This document shows positions 29,491 through 64,000 of a DNA stretch of 64,000 nucleotides, in pieces. The stretch lies in IMG/VR virus record IMGVR_UViG_3300025411_000008, positions 32,001 through 96,000 of that record; one strand, written 5' to 3'. The number at the start of each line of letters is the position of its first letter. The stretch's first letter is position 1. The translations under genes and the position numbers were made by a program. The stretch is from a virus. The notes under the pieces were generated by a model. It saw only the letters and a list, made by a program, of their open reading frames with translations. It had not been told where the DNA came from and searched no databases.

Positions 29491-30248
29491 TAGAACGTTA
29501 CCGTTCCTGTACCCGCCGTGCTGAATGTAAACACAACGTAACCGGTGTAAGTGGTCTTGGTGTAGGCGAGCGACGAGGTCGGCGTTCCGGTGTAGGTGCT
29601 TGGCAGAGAGATGATGACCACGCCACCCGTAGCCTGAACGGTGGTAGCGCCATTGAGACCCGAGCCCATTCCGTAGCCCGTTGAACTCCACCCTGCTCCG
29701 GTTGAGCCAGGTAAGTGGGTGGCGTAGCCACCACCACCGGCTGCGTAGTAGACCGCCGTTCCGGTAATCGAACTCTGAAGTCCGTCACCACCATTACCAC
29801 CGATACCGGTTAGGGAGCTGAAGCCGGTTCCGTTCGTACCGGCGCTACCAGCACCACCACCACCGCCGTAGCCGAACGCGTTTCCCGTGCCACCGGCATT
29901 TCCCTGTCCCGAAGTTCCGGCGTAGGAGGTCGTGGTGTTAGAGCCACCAGCAGATCCAACTACACCCGAGCCACCGGAGTTGAACTGACCACCACCGAGT
30001 GAGGTTGTGGTATTAAACGTCGAGTTGCCACCATTGCTCGAGGAGCCCTTAGCACCGACGACGATTGTGTAGTCAGTTCCTAATTTAATTGTTGGTGTAA
30101 TGGTCTGCATACCACCAGCACCACCGGCAAAGCGAGGCGTGGAGTAGGAGCCACCGCCACCGACGATGAGCACAGTTGCAGCAAAAAACGGTGAGAACAT
30201 ACCGAGTGTTTGAATAGCATCGTCCGCAAATGTGGTTACAAGTGGCAT
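29490..30248 (-). CDS. glycine-rich domain virion/fibre-associated protein
   Basis: VLIVGGGG, GGAGG, GQGNAGG, SSITG.AVYYAAGGGG and GGVVII motifs; elevated GC. Confidence 0.75.
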   Translation of the reverse strand: MPLVTTFADDAIQTLGMFSPFFAATVLIVGGGGSYSTPRFAGGAGGMQTITPTIKLGTDYTIVVGAKGSSSNGGNSTFNTTTSLGGGQFNSGGSGVVGSAGGSNTTTSYAGTSGQGNAGGTGNAFGYGGGGGAGSAGTNGTGFSSLTGIGGNGGDGLQSSITGTAVYYAAGGGGYATHLPGSTGAGWSSTGYGMGSGLNGATTVQATGGVVIISLPSTYTGTPTSSLAYTKTTYTGYVVFTFSTAGTGTVTF

Positions 30249-33200
30249 TAGAACTTAGTCAATCCTGCTAACAGTGTCCAAGTAGGCGTGTTTGACGTGC
30301 AAATCACAGTAAACGTATAAGAATCAAGAGTGTTGGCATCGGCTGATGACCATGCTGTACCACCTTGGTAGTACGTAGTAATACCATTGTTTGTTGCGCC
30401 CTGCAATGGGAGTGCTGAGCTACTTGCACCCGCCTGATTACCATTAATGGTAACGTTGCTGGGCAGATAAGCCGTAGAACCATTATTTACAAGCAAAGCA
30501 AAAGTGGCACTTACACCAGATACGGTTGGTGCTCCGGTGATTGCTACTGTATATGAACCAGATGGTGCTGTATTATAGAAGTAGAAAGAGCTGTTTGCTG
30601 CATTAAGCGTAGCTGGAGTAGCTGTTCCGCTAAGCACTGTTGATCCACTGTATGATACAACTTCATAAGCACCCTGAAGAATAGGGTTGATAATAGCACT
30701 AGCTACAGTGAGTGTACCACTAAACGAAGCATTGCCAATTTGCGTTAAAGCACCAGATACGGTAAGACCAGAAGCAGCTACCAGGTTGCCACCAACAGTA
30801 CCACCAGAGATAGCAAGGTTGTTAAACCCAGAGATAGCAGTGGTTGATCCTGTTCCACCCTGTGTAATTGGCAATCCTGCCCCAGCAGCCGTTTTAGAGA
30901 GGAAGACAACTGAGTTGTTCGCTGCTGTATTGATTACTGTAATTGTATAAGTAGCCCATGTGCTGGGGTCTGCCGAAGCCCACTGAGTTCCACCTTGGTA
31001 ATAGGTAGTAAAAGAACGTACTGGCGTTGCCGTTCCTGTTCCGCTTGATACACCGACAGTAGTGTTTAGTACAGTAAAGTTGTTTGCAGTCGAAGCAAAG
31101 ACCTGAACGTTCGTTAAATTAAGCGATGAACCAGAAGCAATGCCAAGACCTGTGATGTTAACGGTGGCTCCTCCAATAAGAGAGTTAGCACAGGTATAGG
31201 TAACAGATGTGCCGTTACCCGATGCTGCCGTTACTGTATAGGAGGTGGGTGATGTTTGCCCATTTGTGGGAAGGCTGGCAGTAGAACCAGATGCAGCAAG
31301 CTGGTAGCCATCAATAGAAATTGATGAAGGCAGGTAAGCAGTTGCACCGTTATTCACCGCGAAGTTAGCAGTTGTGGCATAACCGTTTGCAGCACCACGG
31401 TAAGTCGCATAGTTAATCGGGTAAGGACCCGTAGGGTTTGAAGTGTATGCGAAGTATGGTCCATTTGTGTTAGTAACACTGATGGGCGTTCCCGAACTTG
31501 GAGCTACAGCAGAAGTAGACAGAGCTGTTGAGAATGCTCCAACAATTTGTGGTGCTGTCAGAACTGGCGCGGTGATCGCGGGATTAGTTGAGTAAACTAC
31601 TGTGCCGGTTCCCGTTTGACCAGCCCAAGGGCCGCTGGTCGGATACCAGACACCGTTGTAGTAGATGCACGAGAAACTGTTGTACCAAGTCGGAAGGGCA
31701 ACGCTTGAAACCTGGCTTGCATTTATTTGGATTTTGTCGGTTCCACTACCGGAAACAGTTACCGTGTATAGAGAACTATTTAATGAAATATTGTTGGTGG
31801 TTCCGTTTGCTGTTCCGCTCGGAAGAGTAAGTGTAAGAGTGCCAGTAAGGGTAGTGACTAATGATGTTTCTCCAGCCGTAATGGTGGGGTTGCTCGTGGA
31901 GGTGTGAGTGACGAAGTTGTTCGTCTGTGAGAGAAGCGTGGCCTGCGTCGAGCTGATGCTCTTGCCCTGAATAGCGCCGACCACCGAGGCAGTGGCGGTT
32001 CCGGTCACGTCACCCGTCAGAGGGAGTGCGCCGGTTGCGGAGCCGGTTCCACCGTTCGCTACTGGCAGAACGCCGATCATGTTGGTGATGTCGGTAGTCC
32101 ATGTGTTGTACCAGTAGGAAGTACCGTCATAGACCCAGCCGTACGCTTCGCCTGGATCTACCGTATACGTGGTGTACGTCGTTTTTTGCGCTGACATTGA
32201 TCCAGAAAGCGTGATGGTCGCAGACGAGTTGTTGATAATTGAGTACTGCGAGCCAGAGACGGGACTGGTCGGAAGAGTGATAGTAAATGGCGTTGAGCCA
32301 GTGCAAATCGAAACCTCGCCAAGCGCGGCGGTGGCGGCAGCCGAGCGCGTGGCAATGCTCTGGCTCTCCGTTGGCGACCAGTTGCCTGTAGTGACTGCCG
32401 AGCCGGTAGCGGTGACAGTGGTGGTCGAGGCAAGGTTTACCGCGAAGGTGTTGGTGCCGTTGGAGGAAGCGACCAGACCGCCCGTGGCGTTGTTCGCCCC
32501 CATACCCGTAATCGTGACGTAGGAGCCAGCCTTCGGAGCCGTACCGCCCGAGGTAGTGTAGGTGACGTAGGTGGTGTGACCGACTGAGTTAGTAACGGTG
32601 TAGGTGGCGCTTGCCGCGACACAAGACCAGATTGTCGAAGTGTGATCGATAACGTAGTCACCTACAAGGTAAGTCCCTTGCGTTGGTGGTCCTGAAGTCG
32701 TACCACCTACAAAGCGAGCGCCAGCAGTTGCATTGCCAATTCCAGTGGCATTAAAGTCCGAAGCAACATCTTCTCCAGTAAGCGTGATCGAGGTGCCTGT
32801 AATAGCACCCGTCATTGTTCCGCCTGATTTTTGAAGCGCACCAGCAACGGTCGTGTTTGCCGAGATGATGCTCTCGACGTTGGTGGTCGCAGCAAGAGTG
32901 GGGTTGGGGTAAGTACCTGAAAGGTCACCGCCAGCGGTATAACCACTGGTCATCACGTTATTGCCACCAATGGTTACAGTTCCACTAAATGTAGCGTTTC
33001 CAATGTGCGTTGAGGTACCAGTAACAGTAAGGTTGCCGCCAATTGTCATTGCGCCTGAATCAATTTCGCTAGCTACTGAAAGTGCCCCGCTGACTGTAAG
33101 CCCACTAGCAATTGCAAGATTACCGCTAATTGTTCCACCGGATCCTGGCAGGGCAGCATAAGCTACACCACTAACGGTGTTAAGGTTGCCTGAAATTAAC

Positions 33201-34480
33201 GCGATAGAGCTCGTTTGACCAGTAACAATGCCTGAAGTTGTGTTGTATTGTCCAGACAGTGTAACAAATTGTCCACTAAGAGTAGCAAGATTTGCAACTG
33301 TACCTGTTACTGTTGGATTAACGTTGATTATGGTATTGACTACACCACTAACAGCAGTGGTTCCTACAAGTGTTGCAGCTACTGCACCTGTACCAGTTGC
33401 CGTTACGTCCCCAGTAAGAGAAGTAATTCCTCCTCCACCGCCACTAACCGTTGCTGGCACCCATTGTGTGTTGTTCCATACAAGAGATTGTCCGCTAGTA
33501 GCAGTTACACCACCAATGATGGGGCTGGTGATGTTCAATGCACCACTGATCGTACCGCCAGAGCGTTGCAGAGCAGAGTAAGCAACTCCGCTTACAGTGT
33601 TGAGGCTACCCGAAGTAGTTGCGTAAGCTCCACTAAGAGTTACGAACTGACCACTTAATGTTGACAGGTTGCTATTTGTTGTGTTGAGGTTCCCTGAGGT
33701 TACAGCATAGGCGCCTGACAATGCAACAAATTGACCTGACAGGGTGTTAAGACTGCCACTAATGCTCGCAATCGATCCAGTGTGACCGGTTACAATTCCG
33801 CTGGTTGTTACATACTGGCCACTGAGGGTAGCCAAGCTGCCTGACAAACTGGCGATATTAGCTTCATCAGTGACTTGCTTACCTGAAATTGTAGCAATAT
33901 AACCAGATTGAGTAGTAACAACGCCAGACGTAGTGGCATATTGACCCGACAACGTTGCGAGTGAGCCACTCAAGGCAGCAACGTTTGCAGTAGTAGTGGT
34001 TACGATGCCGCTAGTTACCACATATTGACCTGAGAGAGTCGTAATCTCATTTGTAAGGGTGATTGCTGACGTATTGAACTGGAGGTCATCTACGGCTGTT
34101 CTAACGGGGAATACGTTGAACCCTGACGTAGTACCGATGGCATGGGCAACAGAAGATGTTCCATCCCAGCCACGTCCATTATTTGTACCGTCAGTCCATA
34201 CGGTGATTAATGCATTCGTGCCAATGCTGATGGCTCCTGAAGCACAAAGAATCTTTTCTTCTGTGCCAAGGCCATAGTCAACTACAAGGGTAAATACACC
34301 ACTAGTTCCAAGAGGGTTAGTAGTGGCAGTTCCGCTCGAGCTTACTTCATACCATCCTGCTGTATTTGCCAGTTGCAAAGTTTGACCAGCAGAGTACCCA
34401 CTTGCCAAAACTGCGGAAAGGTACGTAGGTGTGGCAGCACCTGCAAGAGATCTAGGAGTTGTGTAATTGGGGTAAGCCAT
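30248..34480 (-). CDS. long tail fibre / appendage protein (1410 aa)
   Basis: Heptad S-G repeats, GGT+SG and LTGDVT hinge motifs, duplicated C-terminal YYQGGT.W..AD domain. Confidence 0.82.
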   Translation of the reverse strand: MAYPNYTTPRSLAGAATPTYLSAVLASGYSAGQTLQLANTAGWYEVSSSGTATTNPLGTSGVFTLVVDYGLGTEEKILCASGAISIGTNALITVWTDGTNNGRGWDGTSSVAHAIGTTSGFNVFPVRTAVDDLQFNTSAITLTNEITTLSGQYVVTSGIVTTTTANVAALSGSLATLSGQYATTSGVVTTQSGYIATISGKQVTDEANIASLSGSLATLSGQYVTTSGIVTGHTGSIASISGSLNTLSGQFVALSGAYAVTSGNLNTTNSNLSTLSGQFVTLSGAYATTSGSLNTVSGVAYSALQRSGGTISGALNITSPIIGGVTATSGQSLVWNNTQWVPATVSGGGGGITSLTGDVTATGTGAVAATLVGTTAVSGVVNTIINVNPTVTGTVANLATLSGQFVTLSGQYNTTSGIVTGQTSSIALISGNLNTVSGVAYAALPGSGGTISGNLAIASGLTVSGALSVASEIDSGAMTIGGNLTVTGTSTHIGNATFSGTVTIGGNNVMTSGYTAGGDLSGTYPNPTLAATTNVESIISANTTVAGALQKSGGTMTGAITGTSITLTGEDVASDFNATGIGNATAGARFVGGTTSGPPTQGTYLVGDYVIDHTSTIWSCVAASATYTVTNSVGHTTYVTYTTSGGTAPKAGSYVTITGMGANNATGGLVASSNGTNTFAVNLASTTTVTATGSAVTTGNWSPTESQSIATRSAAATAALGEVSICTGSTPFTITLPTSPVSGSQYSIINNSSATITLSGSMSAQKTTYTTYTVDPGEAYGWVYDGTSYWYNTWTTDITNMIGVLPVANGGTGSATGALPLTGDVTGTATASVVGAIQGKSISSTQATLLSQTNNFVTHTSTSNPTITAGETSLVTTLTGTLTLTLPSGTANGTTNNISLNSSLYTVTVSGSGTDKIQINASQVSSVALPTWYNSFSCIYYNGVWYPTSGPWAGQTGTGTVVYSTNPAITAPVLTAPQIVGAFSTALSTSAVAPSSGTPISVTNTNGPYFAYTSNPTGPYPINYATYRGAANGYATTANFAVNNGATAYLPSSISIDGYQLAASGSTASLPTNGQTSPTSYTVTAASGNGTSVTYTCANSLIGGATVNITGLGIASGSSLNLTNVQVFASTANNFTVLNTTVGVSSGTGTATPVRSFTTYYQGGTQWASADPSTWATYTITVINTAANNSVVFLSKTAAGAGLPITQGGTGSTTAISGFNNLAISGGTVGGNLVAASGLTVSGALTQIGNASFSGTLTVASAIINPILQGAYEVVSYSGSTVLSGTATPATLNAANSSFYFYNTAPSGSYTVAITGAPTVSGVSATFALLVNNGSTAYLPSNVTINGNQAGASSSALPLQGATNNGITTYYQGGTAWSSADANTLDSYTFTVICTSNTPTWTLLAGLTKF

Positions 34481-55627: not shown

Positions 55628-56410
55628 TTAACTTTCGTCTTCCTCGAGGTCATTAACATCGAACATTCTTTGTACCTTTGCCCCAGGTATATTAACTGTT
55701 GGTGTATTAGATGGTTGGTTACTTGGTGGCGTAGCTTCAGGAACTGTTTGAACCTTACGCTCTCTTCTCTTTGGCGTAGGTGTTTCATCGACTGGTGTCG
55801 TTGATTCCTCAGAGTTATAACCCTTAACCTTTGACTTCGGCATCTTAATATCATGCTTTGGTGCTTCATCATCGGCAGATAAATAAGTAACACCTGTAGT
55901 TACTGTCTGATATGGTGTTGGTGTTGTAACTGGAGCATCGCTGTCTTGTATACCACGAGTTCTAGAACGTTCTTTGTTCCTAACAACTCGTCTCTTCGTT
56001 TCGCTCTTCAAGCTACTTACAGCACGCTCAGTCTTGTTAATGTTCCTATTTTCAATGCGTTGATCTGTCTTACCAGATTCGCCTGGGTTCAGACCAGATG
56101 GACGCTGGTTAGCAACAGCATGTTCCATCTCAACGATTTCATTACCAACAAAAAGAGCATGGTTTGCGCATGTGTGAACCTGTGTCACTCCAGATGGAGT
56201 GTAAATGAATTCACCATCTTTGTTCTCTGCTACGCCACCACGCTCGTAGCTCTTAGCACCTTTTGCTCTAGCTTTCAAAGCTTTCCTAGAAGAACGCTGG
56301 ATGCTATCGCACGGGCCCAGAGAATCATATTTCTTCGCTTGTTCTGGAGCTAAGCTATCTCTAAGATCAGCTATGCAGCAACGCTTTCCCATATTAACAT
56401 GCGTATCCAT
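55628..56410 (-). CDS. hypothetical charged protein
   Basis: 260 aa; CC...C...HTC..H; translationally coupled (TAATG). Confidence 0.7.
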   Translation of the reverse strand: MDTHVNMGKRCCIADLRDSLAPEQAKKYDSLGPCDSIQRSSRKALKARAKGAKSYERGGVAENKDGEFIYTPSGVTQVHTCANHALFVGNEIVEMEHAVANQRPSGLNPGESGKTDQRIENRNINKTERAVSSLKSETKRRVVRNKERSRTRGIQDSDAPVTTPTPYQTVTTGVTYLSADDEAPKHDIKMPKSKVKGYNSEESTTPVDETPTPKRRERKVQTVPEATPPSNQPSNTPTVNIPGAKVQRMFDVNDLEEDES

Positions 56411-57639
56411 TATTGATCTCCCTTGCAGCGGTAAGACTCAGCAATAAATTTGTCAACACGGTCAAATTTATTGCCAGGGTAGCTATCTGGAAATGGAGCG
56501 GTTTTGATTTTAGCGATGCCACTCTTGTAATCATCACTTTGCTTAATCTTGGAGATGTTTTCTGGTGTTTCAAAGCCTCTTCTTTTTTCACAACCACAAA
56601 AGACGTGTGACTCTTGCTTAGTAGGCGTTGAGGGTGTAGACGCAGGAAGCAATGCTTGCTCTTCTCTTTTTTGCCTTATTTGCTTTATTTCGTCGAAAGT
56701 GTCTTTGAAGGCACCTGCGTAACCAGTACCTTCTTGCTCTCCGCGTCTTACAAGCATCTTATTGATAGATTCAATGTTTTGACGACCCTTCATTGCAAGC
56801 ACTCGGTCTTGACCCTGCACACCGTGTTCGGGGATAGCAATGGTAGTCTTACGTGATGGTTTGCTAGCAGGCACTCTAGAAGTTCCAGAAGACGCGCTTG
56901 AGTCATCGTCTTCAAAGTCTTCTAACTCTGGTACGTGTTCTTCTGGGGTTTCATCAGTGGGAGCAGACTTTGTCTTATTGAACTTCTTATTGACAGGTGG
57001 CAATGCCTGGATAGGAATACCCTTATCTTCTTCCTGATCACCTTCATGTTCTTCTTCGTGAGAAACATTCTCTGGGATTTCTTCTTCAGCTTCTTCAGCT
57101 TCGTGAGGAGATTCTTCTTCTGGGTGTCCAGGAAGCGTTTCAGGATCGTAAGTGAACTTACCTACTTGTTCTTCTTCAGCTTTCTCTTCATCATTGGGTT
57201 CTGTATCAACTTGTTCTGGCTCTTTGTCTTCAGTTGCATCAGACCATTCTTCCTGCTTGCCTTCGTAGTCATCAGGATCGTAATCGTCGCTAGAAGCGTT
57301 GAAAAGCATTTTGAATGTGGCTGTCTTGCCCAAAGATGGCAATGCAATAATATTTGCTTTTTTCAAGAACTCAATAGATTCAGGAGAATATTTGATCGTG
57401 CCAGGCGTTTGGCCCTGCTTATTCAAAATGTCTTTAAGAGCGTCTTCTTCGCTGGTATAAAGCTTTTTAGGCGTTGAAACTGACGTAGGAGCAGTAGGGT
57501 GCTCTGTTCTCTTATATTTTCTAGGCCCTGGTTCTTTTTGCCCTGATTGTGTGTTATCTTTTCTCAAATACCACTCAGGGTCTCCATTACTAATGGCACC
57601 CGTACCCGAAGAGTACTTAGAATTAAATGTTTTAGCCAT
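56410..57639 (-). CDS. hypothetical highly acidic, low-complexity protein
   Basis: 409 aa; E/D tracts; leader FNSKYSS; C-terminal H.FCGC...C. Confidence 0.75.
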   Translation of the reverse strand: MAKTFNSKYSSGTGAISNGDPEWYLRKDNTQSGQKEPGPRKYKRTEHPTAPTSVSTPKKLYTSEEDALKDILNKQGQTPGTIKYSPESIEFLKKANIIALPSLGKTATFKMLFNASSDDYDPDDYEGKQEEWSDATEDKEPEQVDTEPNDEEKAEEEQVGKFTYDPETLPGHPEEESPHEAEEAEEEIPENVSHEEEHEGDQEEDKGIPIQALPPVNKKFNKTKSAPTDETPEEHVPELEDFEDDDSSASSGTSRVPASKPSRKTTIAIPEHGVQGQDRVLAMKGRQNIESINKMLVRRGEQEGTGYAGAFKDTFDEIKQIRQKREEQALLPASTPSTPTKQESHVFCGCEKRRGFETPENISKIKQSDDYKSGIAKIKTAPFPDSYPGNKFDRVDKFIAESYRCKGDQ

Positions 57640-58364: not shown

Positions 58365-58448
58365 TGGTCGATGGGGAGAGATTCGAACTCCCGTACCCGA
58401 AGGATCTGGTTTACAGCCAGACGCGATTGGCCACTCCGCCACCCATCG
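58365..58448 (-). tRNA. tRNA-Tyr(GUA), C1:G72, encoded CCA
   Basis: CGATGGG...TCTGG-CTGTAAA-CCAGA...GGGAG-TTCGAAT-CTCTC-CCCATCG-A-CCA; extended variable arm. Confidence 0.93.
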
Positions 58449-58453
58449 ATTTG

Positions 58454-58524
58454 CTGAGGGAGAAGGACTCGAACCTTCAACAAAAGCTCCAAAGGCTCCC
58501 GTGTTGCCATTACACCATCCCTCA
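58454..58524 (-). tRNA. tRNA-Gln(UUG)
   Basis: TGAGGGATGGTGTAATGGCAACACGGGAGC-CTTTGGA-GCTTT...GAAGGTTCGAGTCCTTCTCCCTCAG. Confidence 0.9.
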
Positions 58525-58546
58525 ATGTTTATTGCATGGCATGCAG

Positions 58547-58633
58547 CGGAATGAGTAGGATTCGAACCTACGGAGGCTTTGATACCTCGCCGGTTTAGCA
58601 AACCGGTGCTTTCGACCACTCAGCCATCATTCC
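58547..58633 (-). tRNA. tRNA-Ser(GCU)
   Basis: GGAATGA acceptor; CCGGT-TTGCTAA-ACCGG; long variable arm GAGGT..GCCTC; G73. Confidence 0.93.
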
Positions 58634-58638
58634 TTATG

Positions 58639-58710
58639 CTCCCAGGGTAGGGATCGAACCTACGACCGAGCGATTAACAGTCGCTTGCTCTGCCGCTGAG
58701 CTACCTGGGA
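58639..58710 (-). tRNA. tRNA-Asn(GUU)
   Basis: TCCCAGGTAGCTCAG...AGCGA-CTGTTAA-TCGCT...GTAGGTTCGATCCCTACCCTGGGAG. Confidence 0.93.
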
Positions 58711-58718
58711 TTGTAAAA

Positions 58719-59078
58719 CTAGTCTCCTTTGACCACTCTGATACTATCATAGTCGAAGTGTTGGGTAGAGAACTCAAATACGCGTGAATTCTCTAGACCA
58801 ATGATTCTGTGACGTAAACCGACAGGTACGTGGAAAAGGTCTCCCGCATTAAGCACCTTTTCCTGTGCGAGCTCGATATCGTCTGTCTCACCGTAAAGTA
58901 CGATGACCTTACCGTTCTCTACGTAGAAGGTTTCGTCCTTGATGTTGTGATAATGGTAAGAAAGCTTCTTACCCTTATTCATGTGCAAGATCTTGGCGCA
59001 GTACTTCTCAGAGTTACAAAGAATCTCTTCATAACCCCAGCCCTTTTCTACAAATTCCTTATTCAAAGAAGTCATCAC
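58719..59078 (-). CDS. cupin-fold sugar isomerase-like protein
   Basis: KGWGYE, LSYHYH..KDETFYV..G, GD.FHVP.G..HR. Confidence 0.8.
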   Translation of the reverse strand: MMTSLNKEFVEKGWGYEEILCNSEKYCAKILHMNKGKKLSYHYHNIKDETFYVENGKVIVLYGETDDIELAQEKVLNAGDLFHVPVGLRHRIIGLENSRVFEFSTQHFDYDSIRVVKGD

Positions 59079-59376
59079 TGTTTATTCCTTTGTCATCGAT
59101 GTAAAAATCAGCAGAAGGTTTACCCATGATTAGATGATGGTACTTACAACCCCATTGCTTAAGCTGACGCTCCGTAATGTCACGGAAAAGTATTTCTACA
59201 AGCTTTGGGTCATTATTTGTCCTATGCATACCTCGAGCCGTAAAATAAACGACTGTATGACCCTCTGAATAAAGCTTGTTTATCTGATCAATACGTTCTT
59301 GAACAGGCAGTGCATTTTCATACTTACCATCAGTAAGTGTGCAGATGGTGCCATCAATATCTACAACGTATCTCAT
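59059..59376 (-). CDS. HAD-superfamily (capsule biosynthesis type) phosphatase
   Basis: VDIDGTI, YFTARG, GKP.AD.YIDDK. Confidence 0.85.
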   Translation of the reverse strand: MRYVVDIDGTICTLTDGKYENALPVQERIDQINKLYSEGHTVVYFTARGMHRTNNDPKLVEILFRDITERQLKQWGCKYHHLIMGKPSADFYIDDKGINSDDFFE

Positions 59377-59762
59377 CGTTCTAAGATCCTAGTGGTTGAA
59401 TAAGGCTCAAGTCTAGTGAAATAATCAATCTTCTTTGCGTACTCTTTACCAGGGAAGTCCTTGCCGAACCAGTCAGCACCAGCAAACCAGATATCTGGGG
59501 ATAAAGCCTTGACGATATTGATCAGTTCTTCATCTGAGTCAAAGAGTAGCGTTTGATCAACATACTTAAAAGCATCAATAACAAATTGTCTATCATACTG
59601 ATTATGGAAAGGTCGATCAGAGCCTTTCTTCTCTTTTACACGCCTATCAGTGTCGATAGCAACAGTTAGGGTGTCACCATGCGATTTGGCATGTTTTAGA
59701 AGTGCTACATGGCCTTTATGAATGACATCAAACGTGCCAGTTAAAAAGATCTTCTTATCCAT
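59373..59762 (-). CDS. cytidylyltransferase-like nucleotidyltransferase (HldE/RfaE domain II-like)
   Basis: GTFDVIHKGH (HxGH), KG..RP, G.DW, terminal YSTT. Confidence 0.85.
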   Translation of the reverse strand: MDKKIFLTGTFDVIHKGHVALLKHAKSHGDTLTVAIDTDRRVKEKKGSDRPFHNQYDRQFVIDAFKYVDQTLLFDSDEELINIVKALSPDIWFAGADWFGKDFPGKEYAKKIDYFTRLEPYSTTRILER

Positions 59763-60540
59763 TTAGATACTCGTCTACAGTCTTGAATTTGTAGTCACCC
59801 CACTCTGGCTTAGCACAGGTATACGTCTGATACTTGCCAACCAGGTGTTCTGGGAACGGTACATATTCTATAGCACCGTTATAAAGGTATGCAACTGACT
59901 CAGCAACGTCTTTAAAGCTAATTGGGTTGCTTGTGCCAAGATCATAGATGCCAGAAGGCTTATCGTTGTTGAGAACGATTTCAACAAGGTCATCAACGCA
60001 GACAAAGTCTCTCTTGAAGTTCTCTGAGCCTTCAAACAGCTTTAGAGAGCCTGTCTCTTTAATTTGGGCTGAGAACTTGCTAACAGGGCTTGCCTGGTCA
60101 CCTTTACGGCCTTCATAATCACCATATACGTTGAAGTAACGAAAACCTTGGATAAGAGAGAACTTATCCATGTTATCTTGCACCCAGTAGTCAACTGTCA
60201 GCTTTGACATAGCATATTGGTTCTTAGGGTTAGGAATACCCTGCAAATCGCCATAAACGGAAGCAGAAGAAGCATACTTAACAGGGATACCAAAAGAGAT
60301 AGCAATCTCAAAGAGGTCTATCGTGTATTCAACGTTCCAGGCATACAGTTTCTTAACATCCTTTTCAGTAGTGCTGGAGATAGCACCCTGGTGCAAAATA
60401 AGATCAACTTTATCCCATTCTTTAAAGTTATAAAGGAAGTGATAAGCATCTTCTTTATCAATAGGCAATAAAGGCTTGTTAGAAAGAACCTTGCTAAAGT
60501 TTCTACCAATGAAACCTTCTGAACCAGTCAAAATGATCAT
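59755..60540 (-). CDS. hldD: ADP-L-glycero-D-manno-heptose 6-epimerase-like SDR
   Basis: MIILTG..GFIG.N, HQGAISSTTE, YASSASVYG, YAMSK, GFRYFNVYG..E..KG.QAS, LFEGSENFKRDFVCVDD, YQTYT.A. Confidence 0.85.
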   Translation of the reverse strand: MIILTGSEGFIGRNFSKVLSNKPLLPIDKEDAYHFLYNFKEWDKVDLILHQGAISSTTEKDVKKLYAWNVEYTIDLFEIAISFGIPVKYASSASVYGDLQGIPNPKNQYAMSKLTVDYWVQDNMDKFSLIQGFRYFNVYGDYEGRKGDQASPVSKFSAQIKETGSLKLFEGSENFKRDFVCVDDLVEIVLNNDKPSGIYDLGTSNPISFKDVAESVAYLYNGAIEYVPFPEHLVGKYQTYTCAKPEWGDYKFKTVDEYLNG

Positions 60541-61265
60541 ATCGTTGTAACCCCTCTATGCTTTACCACTTCAGAAGCGCATTTATTAGCATACTCAATG
60601 CTTTTGATGATATTGCCGCAATTAGCATACTCAACGACAAGTGCTGCCATGAAAGCATCGCCTGCACCTGAGGAGTCCTTGACTTCTACCTTGTCAACGT
60701 GATAACGGTTACCGTTGTACTCGCAACCATCTCCACCCATCGTATGGATGATCTTCTTCTTGAAAGATTCTGTAACTTTGGGGTCAGAGTTCTTGTATTC
60801 GTAATCGTTGATCTTAATGATGAAAGCCTTTTTGGCCCACTTCCCTAGCTTCTTCTTAGTATCGAGGAATACACGTGGGTGTGACTTACAAATATCTTTG
60901 ATGTCGTCTTCTGTTAGATAACCTTTGTTATAGTCAGAAATAACTACAATGTCATATTCGCTGTAATCGATATCGTTTTTAAACCTACCATAGTTTGGCT
61001 CTGTATCGACTCTAATAAACATGTGGTTAGTTGCTTCATGAACGTATCTTGTCTTAGTAATAGACCGCCAATTATGGTTGGTTCTAATGTTGACGTCATC
61101 CGCAAACTTTTTGATGTTGTTTAACACGTTCAGTGCCATACCAGGATTCTTTACCTCATGCATGGCGTTTAGCACAGGTACTGGAATATCGGGTGCAAGA
61201 CGCATTGCATCACAATAAACAAATACGTCCATGCAACTTTCACCTATTACTAAAATTTTAGTCAT
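60537..61265 (-). CDS. PfkB-family sugar kinase (HldE/RfaE domain I-like)
   Basis: ILVIGE...D, RLAPD.PVPV, KTR, +RVD, SDYNKG, D..GAGD.F. Confidence 0.85.
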   Translation of the reverse strand: MTKILVIGESCMDVFVYCDAMRLAPDIPVPVLNAMHEVKNPGMALNVLNNIKKFADDVNIRTNHNWRSITKTRYVHEATNHMFIRVDTEPNYGRFKNDIDYSEYDIVVISDYNKGYLTEDDIKDICKSHPRVFLDTKKKLGKWAKKAFIIKINDYEYKNSDPKVTESFKKKIIHTMGGDGCEYNGNRYHVDKVEVKDSSGAGDAFMAALVVEYANCGNIIKSIEYANKCASEVVKHRGVTTI

Positions 61266-61747
61266 TAGAAAATAGGTAAGCCATCTTTTTTAAGATAGAT
61301 CATGGCAGGGGCCTTGATCAAATATGCATCAATCATAGCCTTTTCTGTAGCTTCACGGCTAGTAGGAAAGTAACTTTGTACATTTTTGAATACCGTAGCT
61401 AAGCGTTCAGGGTTGAGCGGACGGTGAGTAGGACCATGCGTTGGATAATCAGAATAACCAACCAACATAACAGGCAAGTTTTGTTCATCAATATCAATTT
61501 TGACTTGCTCATAAGGTCGTTCGATTACAAAAGGAGTAATTGAATAAACTACTGGACGAAACCCATCGATAGCAAGACCAGCAGCCAAGCTAGTAATTGA
61601 TTGCTCAGTGAGACCAAGGTTGAAGAACCGTTCAGGAAACTTTTCTTTGAACTCAGTCATCTCTTGCTCTACGTCGCCTGTAATCAATACGATGCGATCA
61701 TCTTTTTCAGCGAGCTTAACGATTGTCTTACCGAATGCTACTCTCAT
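61265..61747 (-). CDS. transketolase-like pyrimidine-binding subunit (lacks the C-terminal domain)
   Basis: MR.AF, RFFNLG..EQ, R.YEQ+K.D, GPTH; ends after about 160 aa. Confidence 0.85.
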   Translation of the reverse strand: MRVAFGKTIVKLAEKDDRIVLITGDVEQEMTEFKEKFPERFFNLGLTEQSITSLAAGLAIDGFRPVVYSITPFVIERPYEQVKIDIDEQNLPVMLVGYSDYPTHGPTHRPLNPERLATVFKNVQSYFPTSREATEKAMIDAYLIKAPAMIYLKKDGLPIF

Positions 61748-62469
61748 GCCAGTTCCTCCAATGCTTGCTTTTCTAGGTCTCCACCTAGCCAATTTGAGTG
61801 CCATTTAGGTTGGTTTTCCATAAAGCTTACACCCTTACCCTTGATTGTGTTTGCAACAATCAAAGTAGGAGATACTGCAGCTTCAAAATTGATGTTGATA
61901 AGATCATCGTTGTGACCATCAATTTCATGCACTTCCCAACCAGCAGCTTGTGCAGCAGCAATAAGAGCACGGTCTACGGGCATGATTTCGTCAACGTACC
62001 CAGAACCCTGGATCTTATTGTTATCTACGATAACAACCAAGTTATTGAGCTTTAGGCGTGCAGCAATAAGAATTGATTCCCAAGTAGTGCCTTCTTGGCA
62101 TTCGCCATCACCCATAAGAACAAACACTTTTTCATTTGAGTTGTTGAGCTTACGAGCAAGAGCCATCCCCATAGACACTGGGAAACCATGTCCCATGCTA
62201 CCTGCGGTGCAATAAATGCCATTCTCAGGCTCATAATGAGGGTGACCTTCAAGGGTGGGGTTATAACCTTGTTCACGCAAAAGCACATAGTATGACCAGC
62301 AGCTGTGCCCCTTGCTCAAAACAAAACGGTCATTCTTTCCCATGATTTTATCAAAAAGATTGATCAGAATTTCAGTACAACTAAAGCTACCGCCATAATG
62401 ATAACCACCATTAGCTTTGCTAATCTCAATAGCATCTCTGCGTACTTGCTTTGATCTTTCGTTTAACAT
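61744..62469 (-). CDS. transketolase-like N-terminal TPP-binding subunit
   Basis: H.GGSFS, DRFVLSKGH, GSMGHG, GDGECQEG..WE, DGH, TIKGKG. Confidence 0.9.
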   Translation of the reverse strand: MLNERSKQVRRDAIEISKANGGYHYGGSFSCTEILINLFDKIMGKNDRFVLSKGHSCWSYYVLLREQGYNPTLEGHPHYEPENGIYCTAGSMGHGFPVSMGMALARKLNNSNEKVFVLMGDGECQEGTTWESILIAARLKLNNLVVIVDNNKIQGSGYVDEIMPVDRALIAAAQAAGWEVHEIDGHNDDLININFEAAVSPTLIVANTIKGKGVSFMENQPKWHSNWLGGDLEKQALEELA

Positions 62470-63035
62470 TAATTGGCCTTTCCAGATAGATTGCAAATTA
62501 GAATTTTTTTATCTTCATCGTAATCAAACTCACATGCGTTGTCATACTCTTTAATATAGTTAATTAATTTTTGCTTTGTAGTTTCTTCATCACCAAAATC
62601 AAGAGCCATACCACTAGAAGAATCACCAAGCAGATCAATATCATCAATCAGAATAGTGTGAGCTTTGCGAGGGCGAGCAAAGATTACGTTTAACTCATCC
62701 ATCAAAGGAACTGCTGGGTGTTCTACATTCGGGTCACCGCTTGCGCTGTGAGCATCGAGCCAGAAATCTAGCGGGACATCATAAGGCTCAATCATCTCTG
62801 ATAATTTTTCTTTTGAGTCGCCTAGAAATAACACTACTCTGTTGTCATTATCAAACTTGCTACAACAATTATCGTAGAAAGATTTATTGAACTCAACAGT
62901 TATAACCTTTTCATAACCAAGACCAAGTGCTATTTCTACTGTATAGCCATGTTGTGTACCAGTTTCTACAAAGATATTATTTCTCTTATATTTAGAGAAC
63001 ATCAATGTCATTGCTTCTGTGCTTCTATCTGCCAT
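62469..63035 (-). CDS. class I SAM-dependent methyltransferase-like protein of glycan clusters
   Basis: FVETGT..G, TVE, GDS, FWLDAH, ILIDD. Confidence 0.6.
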   Translation of the reverse strand: MADRSTEAMTLMFSKYKRNNIFVETGTQHGYTVEIALGLGYEKVITVEFNKSFYDNCCSKFDNDNRVVLFLGDSKEKLSEMIEPYDVPLDFWLDAHSASGDPNVEHPAVPLMDELNVIFARPRKAHTILIDDIDLLGDSSSGMALDFGDEETTKQKLINYIKEYDNACEFDYDEDKKILICNLSGKAN

Positions 63036-64000
63036 TATTCCATCTCAATCATTATTCTACCGGCAATGCCGCTTCTAAGTGTATCAAATGCTTCATTTAC
63101 TTCGTCAAGTTTATATCTGTGAGTAATGAACTCATCAATATAAAGCTTCCCAGCCTTCTCGAGCTTAACATAACGCAAGATATCGTTAGAAGGATCTGTC
63201 TTGCCACCCTGGGTAGCCTTGATACTAAGACCATTACCATTAAAGAAGCTGAGTGCATTGACGATTTCAAGTGACGTTCCTGGCTTGGGTTGACCCACAA
63301 GAATCATTCGGCCATTGTTAGATAGATAGCCAAAGCTCTTCTTAATAACATCGACGTTTCCAGTCGTATCAATAACAACGTCTACTTTACCTTCAAACTC
63401 TGTTTCTGAAGTGTTGTAAAAGAAGTCAGCACCAGCCATGAATGAAAGGTCGCGCTTGCTTTCATTGTTGTCAATAGCAACAATTGGGCTAAGGCTACGC
63501 ATAGCTGCACCTTGGATGAGGTTAAGCCCTACACCACCCGTACCGACAACTGCAACGCTTTCACCAAACTTAAAATCGCACTCATTGTCGATAATACCTA
63601 GTGCGGTAGTCAAACTGCATCCAAGGAGCGCAGCGAGGTCATTAGGGGTCTCTGAAGGGACTGTAGTGAGTCGGTTCTCTGACACGATAGCCCACTGAGC
63701 AAGAGTATTTACCTTGCCACTACTAAAAGTCTTGTCACCAAGGGTGTACTGAGGAAACGCAGCATCGATACCAGTACCTGGTCGCCAGTGCATAACAACC
63801 TTGTCACCTACTTTAACAGTGGTTACTCCAGGGCCAATGTCTTCTACAATGCCACAACCCTCATGACCCATAAGGTGAGGAAGGAACTTGCCATTACCCT
63901 TGTTGCCATTGATCTCGTGTAGTTGTGAGCCACAGATACCGCTGACAAGGACACGAACCTGTACTTGACCCACTTGGAGCTCAGTAAGGCCAACATCTTC
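63035..64000 (-). CDS. Zn-dependent alcohol/sugar dehydrogenase (MDR family), 5' end beyond the window
   Basis: GICGSQ, GHEG.G.V, GCSL.T, G.GGVG; frame open to the window edge; structural-Zn Cys loop absent. Confidence 0.9.
   Translation of the reverse strand, partial: EDVGLTELQVGQVQVRVLVSGICGSQLHEINGNKGNGKFLPHLMGHEGCGIVEDIGPGVTTVKVGDKVVMHWRPGTGIDAAFPQYTLGDKTFSSGKVNTLAQWAIVSENRLTTVPSETPNDLAALLGCSLTTALGIIDNECDFKFGESVAVVGTGGVGLNLIQGAAMRSLSPIVAIDNNESKRDLSFMAGADFFYNTSETEFEGKVDVVIDTTGNVDVIKKSFGYLSNNGRMILVGQPKPGTSLEIVNALSFFNGNGLSIKATQGGKTDPSNDILRYVKLEKAGKLYIDEFITHRYKLDEVNEAFDTLRSGIAGRIMIEME

Follow-up and report, generated by a model that had tools for sequence, protein, structure and literature searches.

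A mobile gene cassette for a putative heptose-type nucleotide sugar, with its own GT9-like transferase, in a phage of actinobacterial type

Among the closest described systems is the ADP-heptose pathway (HldE/GmhB/HldD), the product of which is used by the GT9 enzymes WaaC and WaaF. Thiamine-dependent two-carbon branching of nucleotide sugars is carried out by YerE/YerF in the case of yersiniose and by E1-like pairs in orthosomycin sugars. Cyanomyoviruses have long had a cassette of the kind described here annotated as LPS genes, and so it is not unique to the present phage; no functional study of the cyanophage clusters was found in the literature searched. Mycobacteriophages can glycosylate their capsid and tail proteins with transferases of their own, virion glycosylation being reported for Myrna (cluster C), Che8 and Corndog (Freeman et al. 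2023, as cited in PMC12363180 and PMC12582341).

The window analysed, 64,000 nucleotides of IMG/VR record IMGVR_UViG_3300025411_000008 (131.9 kb, 89% complete), carries nine minus-strand genes at 58719-64000, each abutting its neighbour or overlapping it by 1-28 nt. Such a nine-gene operon had been proposed from the sequence alone, and all nine genes were found when families were called with Pfam and NCBIfam. Its extent needed revision, because the window end cuts the alcohol dehydrogenase (ADH) gene and the cassette extends to window-equivalent position 64929, a GT9-like gene further out bringing the total to ten.

58365..58710, minus strand: tRNA cluster (Tyr, Gln, Ser, Asn), bordering the inserted block on its downstream side
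58719..59078, minus strand: metal-binding cupin, 119 aa (Cupin_2, E 9.9e-8)
59059..59376, minus strand: small HAD phosphatase, 105 aa (TIGR01689 EcbF/BcbF capsule phosphatase, 45.6 bits, below the cut-off of 162)
59373..59762, minus strand: cytidylyltransferase-like nucleotidyltransferase (NT), 129 aa (PF01467 CTP_transf_like, E 6.9e-17)
59755..60540, minus strand: short HldD-like SDR, 261 aa (heptose_epim TIGR02197, 204.6 bits, under the cut-off of 274.6; next family 41.7 bits)
60537..61265, minus strand: short PfkB kinase, 242 aa (TIGR02198 rfaE_dom_I, 96.6 bits, under the cut-off of 345; next different kinase family, ribokinase, 35.9 bits)
61265..61747, minus strand: transketolase pyrimidine-binding subunit (Transket_pyr), 160 aa from the ATG at 61747 (PF02779, E 1.2e-18)
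61744..62496 (or 62469), minus strand: transketolase thiamine-diphosphate-binding subunit (Transketolase_N), 250 aa from TTG or 241 aa from the ATG at 62469 (PF00456, E 2.8e-28; NF004559 transketolase 182.4 bits, below the cut-off of 488)
62469..63035, minus strand: methyltransferase-like protein, 188 aa (Atlas structure rows and a weak PDB match)
63035..64000, cut by the window end, minus strand: Zn-dependent medium-chain ADH (ADH_N and ADH_zinc_N); the whole gene, 336 aa, is L004:5036-6046 and reaches window-equivalent 64045
Window-equivalent 64045-64929 (G000:C1:96045-96929, L004:6046-6930), minus strand: GT9-like GT-B glycosyltransferase, 294 aa (from its predicted model)

The corresponding site of the relative G006, whose capsid is 98% identical, lacks the ten-gene block, and there the u104 homologue is followed directly by tRNA genes. 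The block is an insertion in which the transferase and the sugar genes move as one unit, and a kinase homologue occurs in none of 20 related records. The GT9-like gene is the first of the block, lies directly upstream of the sugar genes with which it travels, and shares one base of its stop with the ADH start. Promoter and terminator scans gave site numbers no higher than in shuffles. Judged by its genes this uncultured phage is of actinobacterial type, its GC of 47% notwithstanding, with low-GC actinobacteria as the host type: it has three WhiB genes and an Rpf-like transglycosylase domain, its capsid is 63-64% identical to those of Mycobacterium cluster C myoviruses (Myrna is among the best matches) and its portal also resembles theirs, in agreement with the sequence-only reading. 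It looks lytic and myovirus-like, and no integrase was seen in Pfam scans.

On its predicted model (pLDDT 91.1) the 294-aa protein is closest to the GT9 heptosyltransferases. Foldseek gave WaaC at E 1.7e-6 with ranks 1-27 all GT9, and Z scores were 12.6-13.9 to GT9 enzymes (WaaC, WaaF, 3TOV, TibC) against at most 10.1 to other GT-B families. The near-invariant Gly-Asp after the first strand presumably occupies the same place as that of the GT9 enzymes themselves. At the sequence level PF01075 gave no match to the protein and, among 60 members of its family, matched a single one (E 0.007). Atlas rows for the family are almost exclusively viral; a search of 50,697 GenBank phage records found no match, and the cellular loci fetched yielded one weak match. 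As TibC and WaaC score within about one Z unit of each other, the fold cannot tell a protein from a lipid acceptor.

The best families of the kinase, NT and SDR are those of the ADP-heptose type, which upholds that part of the earlier HldE/GmhB/HldD assignment, although every HldE/HldD-type score falls short of the NCBIfam curated cut-off, and the kinase, SDR and transketolase are each a shortened form. The kinase, a putative heptose-7-P 1-kinase, matches HldA (PDB 4E84) at E 4.4e-7. The SDR matches E. coli HldD (1EQ2) at E 2.7e-45, about half of 218 residues being identical, and keeps counterparts of S116, Y140, K144 and K178, which we take to be the catalytic residues, with no counterpart of HldD residues 28-50 (a gap of about 23 residues in the dinucleotide-binding domain); it is proposed to act as a 6-epimerase or oxidoreductase of NDP-heptose. 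For the NT, a putative heptose-1-P nucleotidyltransferase, the best NCBIfam model is TIGR02199 rfaE_dom_II (99.8 bits versus 73.7 for TagD TIGR01518), whereas in the PDB TagD 1COZ (63.5 bits) scores slightly above HldC 5X9Q (58.5 bits).

Other parts of that assignment did not hold, and on gene content the cassette departs from a plain HldE/GmhB/HldD set. The HAD protein, with a visible DIDGT nucleophile motif and a match to PDB 9IQW "capsule biosynthesis protein" (E 4.6e-13), is of the small EcbF/BcbF rather than the GmhB type, and is proposed as a heptose-1,7-bisphosphate 7-phosphatase. GmhA is absent, no SIS domain occurring anywhere in the 131.9-kb record, the missing portion of which could hold one since the record is 89% complete. 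The cupin is probably its stand-in, isomerising sedoheptulose-7-P to heptose-7-P. It has a His-His-Glu-His site (H42, H44, E49 and H90, invariant in 14 of 14 homologues), and its predicted model (pLDDT 93.9) has as fold neighbours D-lyxose/mannose isomerases (28% identity), phosphomannose isomerase, the CapF cupin and KdgF, the matches to isomerases, CapF, KdgF and oxalate decarboxylases being near-tied. The ADH and the thiamine enzyme are left unexplained by the plain pathway.

The split transketolase of the sequence-only reading is borne out as two real genes joined by an ATGA overlap, the stop of the upstream gene overlapping the ATG of the downstream one. The pyrimidine-binding subunit has its best PDB match in the C-terminal chain of the split transketolase 6YAJ (residues 36-197 of 341) and lacks the transketolase C-terminal domain. 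The 188-aa protein has no family in Pfam, NCBIfam or PHROGs; its methyltransferase-like label comes from leads among the Atlas features, from TM scores of 0.79-0.82 to methyltransferase clusters in the Atlas structure rows and from a weak match to the PDB O-methyltransferase YrrM (E 0.0031), and it is probably a class I SAM-dependent O-methyltransferase. The ADH matches phrog_2640 at E 1e-89 and is 50-68% identical across all related cassettes, among which three interchangeable types of thiamine enzyme are found.

In a sister phage the methyltransferase and split transketolase are replaced by one fused thiamine enzyme of 399 aa, flanked by ADH (91% identical) and kinase (70% identical). The same cassette order is found in a second, unrelated WhiB phage, its transferase being only 31% identical. 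Of 14 viral loci, 12 have ADH and thiamine enzyme together with the kinase, and the remaining two are cut just upstream of the kinase; among cellular loci the figure is 18 of 28. Phosphatase, cupin and 6-epimerase-type genes accompany the kinase in 7 to 10 of the 14 viral loci. Locus L045 has a four-gene set, NT-cupin-HAD-kinase, which matches the four steps required from sedoheptulose-7-P. Of the 50,697 GenBank phage records 32 have a kinase homologue; 27 of these are named cyanophages, and no actinophage is among them. A proposed co-occurrence test of cassette and Ser/Thr/Gly-rich fibre proved neutral, because the fibre is present also in the cassette-less relatives G006 and G008.

Tentatively, and with somewhat less than an even chance of being right in full, the cassette supplies a nucleotide-activated heptose-type sugar, which its own transferase then attaches, most likely to a virion protein. 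In the substrates and order that we infer, the metal cupin would convert sedoheptulose-7-P to heptose-7-P in place of GmhA, the PfkB kinase would phosphorylate C1, the small HAD would take off the 7-phosphate, the cytidylyltransferase-like enzyme would form the NDP-heptose and the HldD-like SDR would work at C6. The Zn-ADH, thiamine enzyme and methyltransferase-like protein might feed the pathway, though modification of the sugar, by addition and reduction of a two-carbon unit and by methylation, is somewhat likelier. The GT9-like protein would then pass the sugar to an acceptor synthesised within the infected cell, most likely a phage virion protein.

The earlier argument that a phage whose hosts have no LPS makes the sugar for its own use is weakened by L041, a low-GC actinobacterial-type chromosome with a cognate cassette (NT-ADH-thiamine enzyme-kinase-SDR-HAD). 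This chromosome also lends weight to a rather unlikely alternative, that the GT9-like enzyme puts the same sugar on a cell-wall glycopolymer or lipid-linked precursor of the host, so that receptors are masked against superinfection or a host glycan pathway is kept running. Cellular homologues of the cassette lie within surface-glycan loci with Wzm/Wzt ABC transporters, GT2/GT4 and an O-antigen-ligase-like gene, WaaC and WaaF as best structural matches use a lipid-linked acceptor, and in the available text of the sources cyanophage cassettes are read as LPS genes (PMC7378029) and pelagiphage work argues for O-chain modification (PMC7029224). However the block has no flippase, transporter, export, ligase or membrane gene, a point that also speaks for a virion acceptor, and the transferase family is nearly all viral. 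With a phage that looks lytic, any benefit from superinfection exclusion would be short-lived.

The genes immediately ahead of the cassette in the second WhiB phage are those for primase, SSB, polymerase, recombinase and resolvases, not virion genes, a placement that counts against a virion acceptor and for a sugar attached to a modified base in the phage DNA as protection from restriction. That possibility has a precedent in the heptose and di-heptose put on 5hmC by a phage HAD-APH enzyme, cytidylyltransferase and GT-B transferase (10.1101/2023.12.21.572611, in the part available), and it is nonetheless very improbable: both cassette-bearing records (82-89% complete) lack a thymidylate-synthase-type hydroxymethylase and a C5 DNA methyltransferase, the controls for these searches being positive in 10 and 9 of 14 genomes, and T4 beta-glucosyltransferase is not among the 50 structural matches listed for the transferase, which GT9 enzymes lead. 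A Tet_JBP search gave no matches and says little, because its control was silent too. Improbable as well, if less so, is a product other than a heptose, with ADH, thiamine enzyme and kinase making a polyol or other sugar phosphate, to be activated in CDP-alditol fashion by a TagD-like enzyme and used in a decoration resembling teichoic acid. Synthesis of CDP-ribitol follows just this logic of medium-chain ADH plus cytidylyltransferase, the glycerol-3-P cytidylyltransferase TagD is the top PDB match of the NT, and many Patescibacteria conserve no more than ADH-thiamine enzyme-kinase, with no NT, HAD, cupin or HldD-like gene nearby. Such a route needs neither phosphatase, isomerase-type cupin nor 6-epimerase, the very genes that recur with the kinase in viral loci, and it sits poorly with the extent of HldD identity and retained catalytic residues in the SDR, a heptose kinase family leading ribokinase by 60 bits, and a GT9-like transferase.

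Set against the ADP-heptose pathway, then, the phage cassette shares the best families of kinase, NT and SDR, has a phosphatase, and has a transferase resembling the users of the pathway product; it differs in the metal cupin that accompanies the set instead of a SIS-type GmhA, in the type of HAD, in a kinase and NT that are separate and shortened, in the SDR deletion, in the added ADH, thiamine enzyme and methyltransferase-like protein, and in a host type devoid of LPS. With YerE/YerF and the orthosomycin pairs it has in common a thiamine enzyme and reductase beside sugar-nucleotide genes, but the phage thiamine enzymes are of transketolase or E1 type and the block lacks a keto-sugar-forming dehydratase. 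TibC/Aah and WaaC/WaaF share the GT-B fold of the transferase and are its top structural matches, at 10-14% identity, without a PF01075 match and with 320-400 aa as against 294. The glycosylated mycobacteriophages include Myrna, from the cluster of the similar capsid, but the available portions of PMC12363180 and PMC12582341 mention no dedicated sugar-nucleotide pathway for Myrna, Che8 or Corndog, and GenBank actinophage records hold no kinase homologue.

In T4-like cyanophages (S-SM2, P-TIM68, P-SSM2, S-SSM7, S-CAM1 and others) the hosts are Gram-negative cyanobacteria, the "LPS"/heptose cassettes form part of glycan clusters of 15-20 kb that also hold GT2, GT10, GT11, GT25, GT61 and aminotransferases, the loci fetched lack the 294-aa GT9-like family, and the thiamine enzyme is fused in S-SM2 and P-TIM68. 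These two nevertheless have the order ADH-thiamine enzyme-kinase-SDR-NT; P-TIM68 also has cupin and HAD adjacent, and S-SM2 has two HAD genes and, further along the locus, a gene annotated like the cupin family. Across the cyanophages the kinase is 50-58%, the SDR 58-63% and the ADH 63-67% identical to that of the present phage.

Read in the simplest way that uses all its parts, the block would encode a complete route to a heptose-type sugar in nucleotide-activated form, together with the transferase for it. The viral record that carries it is 131,916 bp long (89% complete by CheckV), the window being its bases 32001-96000. Nine minus-strand ORFs lie in 58719-64000 and neighbours abut or overlap by 1-28 nt, so that the nine-gene operon first read from the sequence alone is confirmed by ORF positions and by Pfam and NCBIfam assignments. 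A tenth gene follows beyond the window end.

Genes of the block, all on the minus strand (coordinates past 64000 are numbered on beyond the window end; NT, nucleotidyltransferase; SDR, HldD-like protein; ADH, alcohol dehydrogenase)
58719-59078, minus: cupin (Pfam)
59059-59376, minus: small HAD hydrolase; best family EcbF/BcbF capsule phosphatase
59373-59762, minus: cytidylyltransferase-like NT; rfaE_dom_II 99.8 bits, TagD 73.7
59755-60540, minus: SDR; heptose_epim 204.6 bits, next family GalE 41.7
60537-61265, minus: PfkB kinase; rfaE_dom_I 96.6 bits, ribokinase 35.9
61265-61747, minus: transketolase pyrimidine-binding subunit (Pfam/NCBIfam)
61744-62469/62496, minus: transketolase ThDP-binding subunit (Pfam/NCBIfam)
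62469-63035, minus: 188-aa protein, no Pfam/NCBIfam family
63035 onward, minus: Zn-dependent medium-chain ADH, running past the window end; full length 336 aa
64045-64929, minus: GT9-like ORF, 294 aa, preceding the ADH gene; its stop shares a base with the ADH start

Leads from the Atlas and a weak PDB match suggest that the 188-aa protein is methyltransferase-like. A scan of the block and the upstream 5 kb gave 22 promoter and 10 terminator sites, as against 22.0 and 8.7 in shuffles, and so tells nothing about transcription. Since it is soluble and packs its ten genes into about 6.2 kb, the block can be rebuilt in E. coli.

The earlier assignment to a probable actinomycete phage is borne out by three WhiB genes (E 3e-16, 7e-19 and 2e-11) and a capsid shared with known actinophages. 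The major capsid protein is 63-64% identical to that of Mycobacterium cluster C myoviruses (63% to Phabba and Myrna), and phages of Mycobacterium, Mycolicibacterium, Gordonia, Rhodococcus or Eggerthella make up 224 of the 229 capsid-matching records. For the portal the identity is 39%. The record also holds an Rpf-like transglycosylase domain, a DNA polymerase III alpha and RecA. Genome GC is 46.9%, and the host must be sought among low-GC actinobacteria. Directly downstream of a WhiB gene, and far from the block, is a GT4 glycosyltransferase (490-2258, minus, 434 aa) whose best phage relative is the Tetrasphaera phage TJE1 glycosyltransferase (38% identity).

Capsid searches gave 117 related viral stretches, 80 of which were kept. 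The kinase is in none of the 20 longest related records tested, the same search being positive in all four records of a sister phage that carries the cassette, and it was not found in a complete 124.7-kb relative with terminal repeats. In the related record G006 (capsid 98% identical) the upstream genes are kept, namely a metallophosphoesterase and proteins of 353, 182 and 104 aa, and the tRNA genes then follow directly; everything that runs here from the GT9-like gene through the cupin gene (58719-64929, about 6.2 kb) is absent. The block is thus an insertion, and the tRNA site at its edge seems to be a hotspot for gene exchange. The tRNA cluster itself (58365-58710, minus) carries Tyr, Gln, Ser and Asn, and its G006 counterpart (L131:6626-7751) carries Asn, Asp, Gln and Ile plus an extra 225-aa ORF. 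Just downstream of the tRNAs a 409-aa protein (56410-57639, minus) with acidic Glu/Asp-rich and Pro/Thr/Ser-rich stretches and no family is 37% identical to its sister-phage homologue, the neighbouring genes being 73-95% identical. A few kb upstream of the cassette, a ferritin-like gene (L004:10665-11186, that is G000:C1:100664-101185 of the whole record) and a 359-aa GNAT-domain protein (L004:13895-14974, G000:C1:103894-104973) are conserved in relatives with and without the cassette.

For the kinase the best family is TIGR02198 (HldE domain I / HldA, heptose-7-P 1-kinase) at 96.6 bits, below the cut-off of 345, and the match to HldA in the PDB (4E84, E 4.4e-7) aligns in three short stretches. 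The NT is closest to TIGR02199 (HldE domain II / HldC, heptose-1-P adenylyltransferase) at 99.8 bits, below the cut-off of 181.5, and in the PDB it scores 63.5 bits with TagD and 58.5 with HldC. The HAD protein reaches 45.6 bits with TIGR01689, its best family (cut-off 162), and 19.7 with HAD-SF-IIIA (cut-off 44.6), the class of the heptose-1,7-bisphosphate 7-phosphatase GmhB; its nucleophile motif is present. The SDR has 204.6 bits for TIGR02197 (HldD, the ADP-heptose 6-epimerase with tightly bound NADP), below the cut-off of 274.6, and E 2.7e-45 against E. coli HldD (1EQ2). Since all of these scores fall below curated cut-offs, the enzymes are to be regarded as relatives and not certified equivalogs. 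Counterparts of HldD S116, Y140, K144 and K178, which we take to have catalytic roles, are found in the SDR when positions are counted on the printed alignment, and nothing stands opposite E. coli HldD residues 28-50, some 23 residues of the dinucleotide-binding domain. Close homologues in other viral cassettes (58-78% identical) are also short at 261-276 aa; short HldD-like SDRs of this size occur in loci L001, L002, L011, L013-L015, L018, L047 and L132. PHROG and GenBank names (phrog_1238, phrog_7851) call the small HAD a 'phosphoheptose isomerase' and the cupin a 'cysteine dioxygenase'; both look like inherited misnomers, since Pfam, NCBIfam and the PDB all make the former protein a HAD phosphatase.

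The sequence-only reading had a probable actinomycete phage making an activated heptose with HldE- and HldD-type enzymes. That interpretation is partly supported: the phage type stands, and heptose-pathway families are the best matches of the kinase, NT and SDR, but the textbook set does not cover a block in whose record no GmhA was found and whose ADH and thiamine enzyme it leaves unexplained. The SIS domain that marks GmhA, the sedoheptulose-7-P isomerase, did not turn up in a Pfam scan of ORFs of at least 70 aa across the 89%-complete record, and a six-frame SIS_2 search of the record gave no match (control positive in 11 of 14 genomes). SIS_2 matches are found elsewhere in all five of the kinase-holding cellular genomes searched, which says nothing here because SIS domains serve many enzymes. 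A candidate for the isomerase in place of GmhA is the cupin. It is found with the kinase at 10 of the 14 viral loci and at 7 of the 28 cellular ones, and at locus L045 the cupin, NT, HAD and kinase make up a four-gene set. His42, His44, Glu49 and His90 are invariant in 14 homologues, and the predicted structure (pLDDT 93.9) has as nearly tied best neighbours metal-dependent aldose-ketose isomerases, the CapF cupin, KdgF and oxalate decarboxylases, the most identical (28%) being a D-lyxose/mannose isomerase. These data are consistent with such a role, and the protein named 'cysteine dioxygenase' may be the real isomerase. No paper on a cupin replacing GmhA was found in the open-access literature.

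The pair of ADH and thiamine enzyme falls outside the textbook heptose pathway. In the window the transketolase is encoded by two genes, the TGA of the first overlapping the ATG of the second; ThDP-binding and pyrimidine-binding domains are present, and the C-terminal domain is missing, the second subunit ending at the position that corresponds to residue 197 of the 341-residue chain in 6YAJ. A frameshift was considered and rejected, given the ATGA overlap and a fused protein in cyanophage S-SM2 that is 25% identical over 72 residues only. ADH and thiamine enzyme occur together in 12 of 14 viral loci (the window excluded), the other two being cut just upstream of the kinase, and across 28 cellular loci, mostly of Patescibacteria, the thiamine enzyme lies by the kinase in 19 and the ADH also in 18. 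Three types of thiamine enzyme are seen: besides the split transketolase of the window and locus L016 there is an E1 alpha/beta pair, and the third is a fused protein some 400 aa long. The sister phage, known from four near-identical records, has the GT9-like protein (91% identical), ADH (91%), a fused 399-aa thiamine enzyme, kinase (70%), SDR (78%), NT (84%), HAD (79%) and cupin (95%), with neither a methyltransferase-like gene nor a split transketolase in its cassette; the thiamine enzyme is swapped in place between these two phages. A cellular locus, L041 (18.7 kb), has NT, ADH, thiamine enzyme, kinase, SDR and HAD beside GlnR, Fur and other actinobacterial-type genes (47% GC locus, 1.4-Mb genome), and its genome looks like that of a streamlined low-GC actinobacterium; nitrobindin-type genes are also there, and the database label Bifidobacterium breve is at odds with GC and genome size.

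The linkage of the pair to the kinase across phyla, and the swapping of transketolase and E1 types in one slot, speak for a two-carbon transfer followed by a reduction common to these cassettes. The two-carbon step could serve to tailor the sugar, or it could be an irreversible reaction devoted to making the ketose precursor. A bolder proposal, which we consider a long shot, is that the trio of ADH, thiamine enzyme and kinase does more than supply sedoheptulose-7-P: its product would be a methylated sugar derived from heptose, not described before and either of higher carbon number or with a two-carbon branch, put on virion proteins of phages with LPS-less hosts by a virus-specific GT9-like family. 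The trio is conserved in Patescibacteria, cyanophages and actinophages, with three unrelated thiamine-enzyme architectures tolerated. If true, this would mean a new sugar, a new way into heptose activation that uses the cupin and needs no GmhA, and viral protein glycosyltransferases of a new class. Open-access text gave no paper on the ADH-thiamine enzyme pair, and none was found joining bradyrhizose and transketolase; bradyrhizose has an eleven-gene cluster, the genes of which are not listed in the text available (PMC4743980).

Recognition of the 294-aa protein as a transferase comes from its fold. It has no Pfam or PHROG family, and a HMMER search of 1.84 billion representatives yielded 171 relatives at E <=0.001. 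The structure was modelled on 60 relatives chosen from the best 150 of the 171 (lengths about 240-300; pLDDT 91.1), and with this model Foldseek ranks 1-27 against the PDB are all GT9 heptosyltransferases (WaaC, TibC, WaaF and a Veillonella GT9). VIA-align gives GT9 enzymes Z 12.6-13.9 over 230-239 residues, other GT-B families at most 10.1, and three plant NDH-complex chains 12.0-12.8. The predicted fold is thus GT-B, nearest to WaaC, WaaF and TibC. With PF01075 there is no match for the protein itself, one of 60 family members at E 0.007, and none at E up to 1 in a six-frame search of the record; the family profile against the PDB places 3TOV first at E 0.17. As the fold match comes without PF01075 membership, the protein is termed GT9-like and not GT9. 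Its linkage to the pathway genes, in the same block in two phage lineages, makes ADP-heptose a candidate donor.

The second of these lineages is a WhiB phage with a 103-kb record, two WhiB genes, GC of 38.6% over the fetched locus and no detectable homologue of the window phage's capsid. Replication and recombination genes stand just before its cassette, which runs GT9-like (31% identical), ADH, fused thiamine enzyme, kinase, a 237-aa ORF, SDR, NT, HAD and cupin. After the cassette come a 300-aa ORF, a galactosyltransferase-like GT and a dehydrogenase (phrog_9582; L132:15665-18378), and this version may add a second sugar. That locus was the one hit in viral contigs with the single family member P0012 as query; members P0010, P0009 and P0158 found no match there, nor P0009 in metagenome contigs. 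Among 50,697 GenBank phage records the kinase is in 32, with no actinophage among these, and this GT9-like protein is in none. Cyanophage cassettes have proteins of 270-282 aa between the genes for thiamine enzyme and kinase, and their kinship with the 294-aa family found no firm support: the 270-aa S-SM2 protein ranks 16 in BFVD, but the hhalign probability is 0.3%.

The easy LPS reading is removed because the host type has no LPS. The leading candidate for the acceptor of the GT9-like enzyme is a phage protein. In its favour, export genes are missing from the block, nearly all members of the transferase family among Atlas rows are viral, and the related cluster C phage Myrna is reported to have a glycosylated virion (cited in PMC12363180). 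Between the tail-sheath and capsid genes lies a 1410-aa fibre-like protein (30248-34480, minus) of 31% Ser+Thr and 13% Gly, with many repeats of type ...LSGSLATLSGQYVTTSGIVT..., which probably serves as a fibre or decorates the virion. Relatives without the cassette have homologues of it, one of 1149 aa and others of 2057 and 2179 aa. The co-occurrence of cassette and such proteins that the sequence-only reading proposed to look for gave no specific link, the Ser/Thr/Gly-rich fibre being present in the cassette-less related records G006 and G008 (weak in G011, not found in G012).

An acceptor in the host envelope seems unlikely, if well worth keeping in mind: the cellular homologues of the cassette sit inside surface-glycan loci, and those with kinase, thiamine enzyme and ADH contain Wzm/Wzt transporters and GT2/GT4 enzymes, whereas the phage block is without export genes of its own. 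Far less probable is phage DNA as the acceptor, by base hypermodification. A preprint (10.1101/2023.12.21.572611) shows heptose on 5hmC, the making of which takes a HAD-APH enzyme together with a cytidylyltransferase and a GT-B transferase, and the cassette adjoins replication genes in the second WhiB phage. Such clusters call for an enzyme that forms 5hmC or 5hmU, either a ThyA homologue or a C5-methyltransferase plus a TET/JBP dioxygenase, yet homologues of thymidylate synthase and C5 methyltransferases are both missing from the two cassette-bearing records. PF00303 and PF00145 matched none of three records, their controls being positive, and Tet_JBP (PF12851) none of the three with its positive control also silent. 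Should the target be the virion, such sugar coats would bear on host recognition and environmental survival of phages that infect the most abundant actinobacteria of freshwater type.

For two decades cyanophage genome papers have listed 'LPS/heptose' genes, and no functional test of such phage genes was found in open-access text. The missing piece supplied here is a heptosyltransferase-like enzyme of the pathway's own, the two travelling together in a single insertion. In print the cyanophage heptose genes appear as host-derived LPS genes (available text of PMC7378029), and for pelagiphages a role of 'rfaE' and glycosyltransferases in modifying the O-chain is discussed (available text of PMC7029224); the open-access literature gave no paper on such a cassette in an actinophage. 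Cyanophage-type contigs and the cyanophages S-SM2 and P-TIM68 have the core in common with the window, their kinases being 50-63% identical, but there the core is found inside large glycan clusters, which also encode methyltransferases, an aminotransferase and GTs of several families. The block is an actinophage version of this aquatic phage heptose cassette, one that brings a GT9-like transferase along, lacks GmhA and has a thiamine enzyme that can be exchanged.
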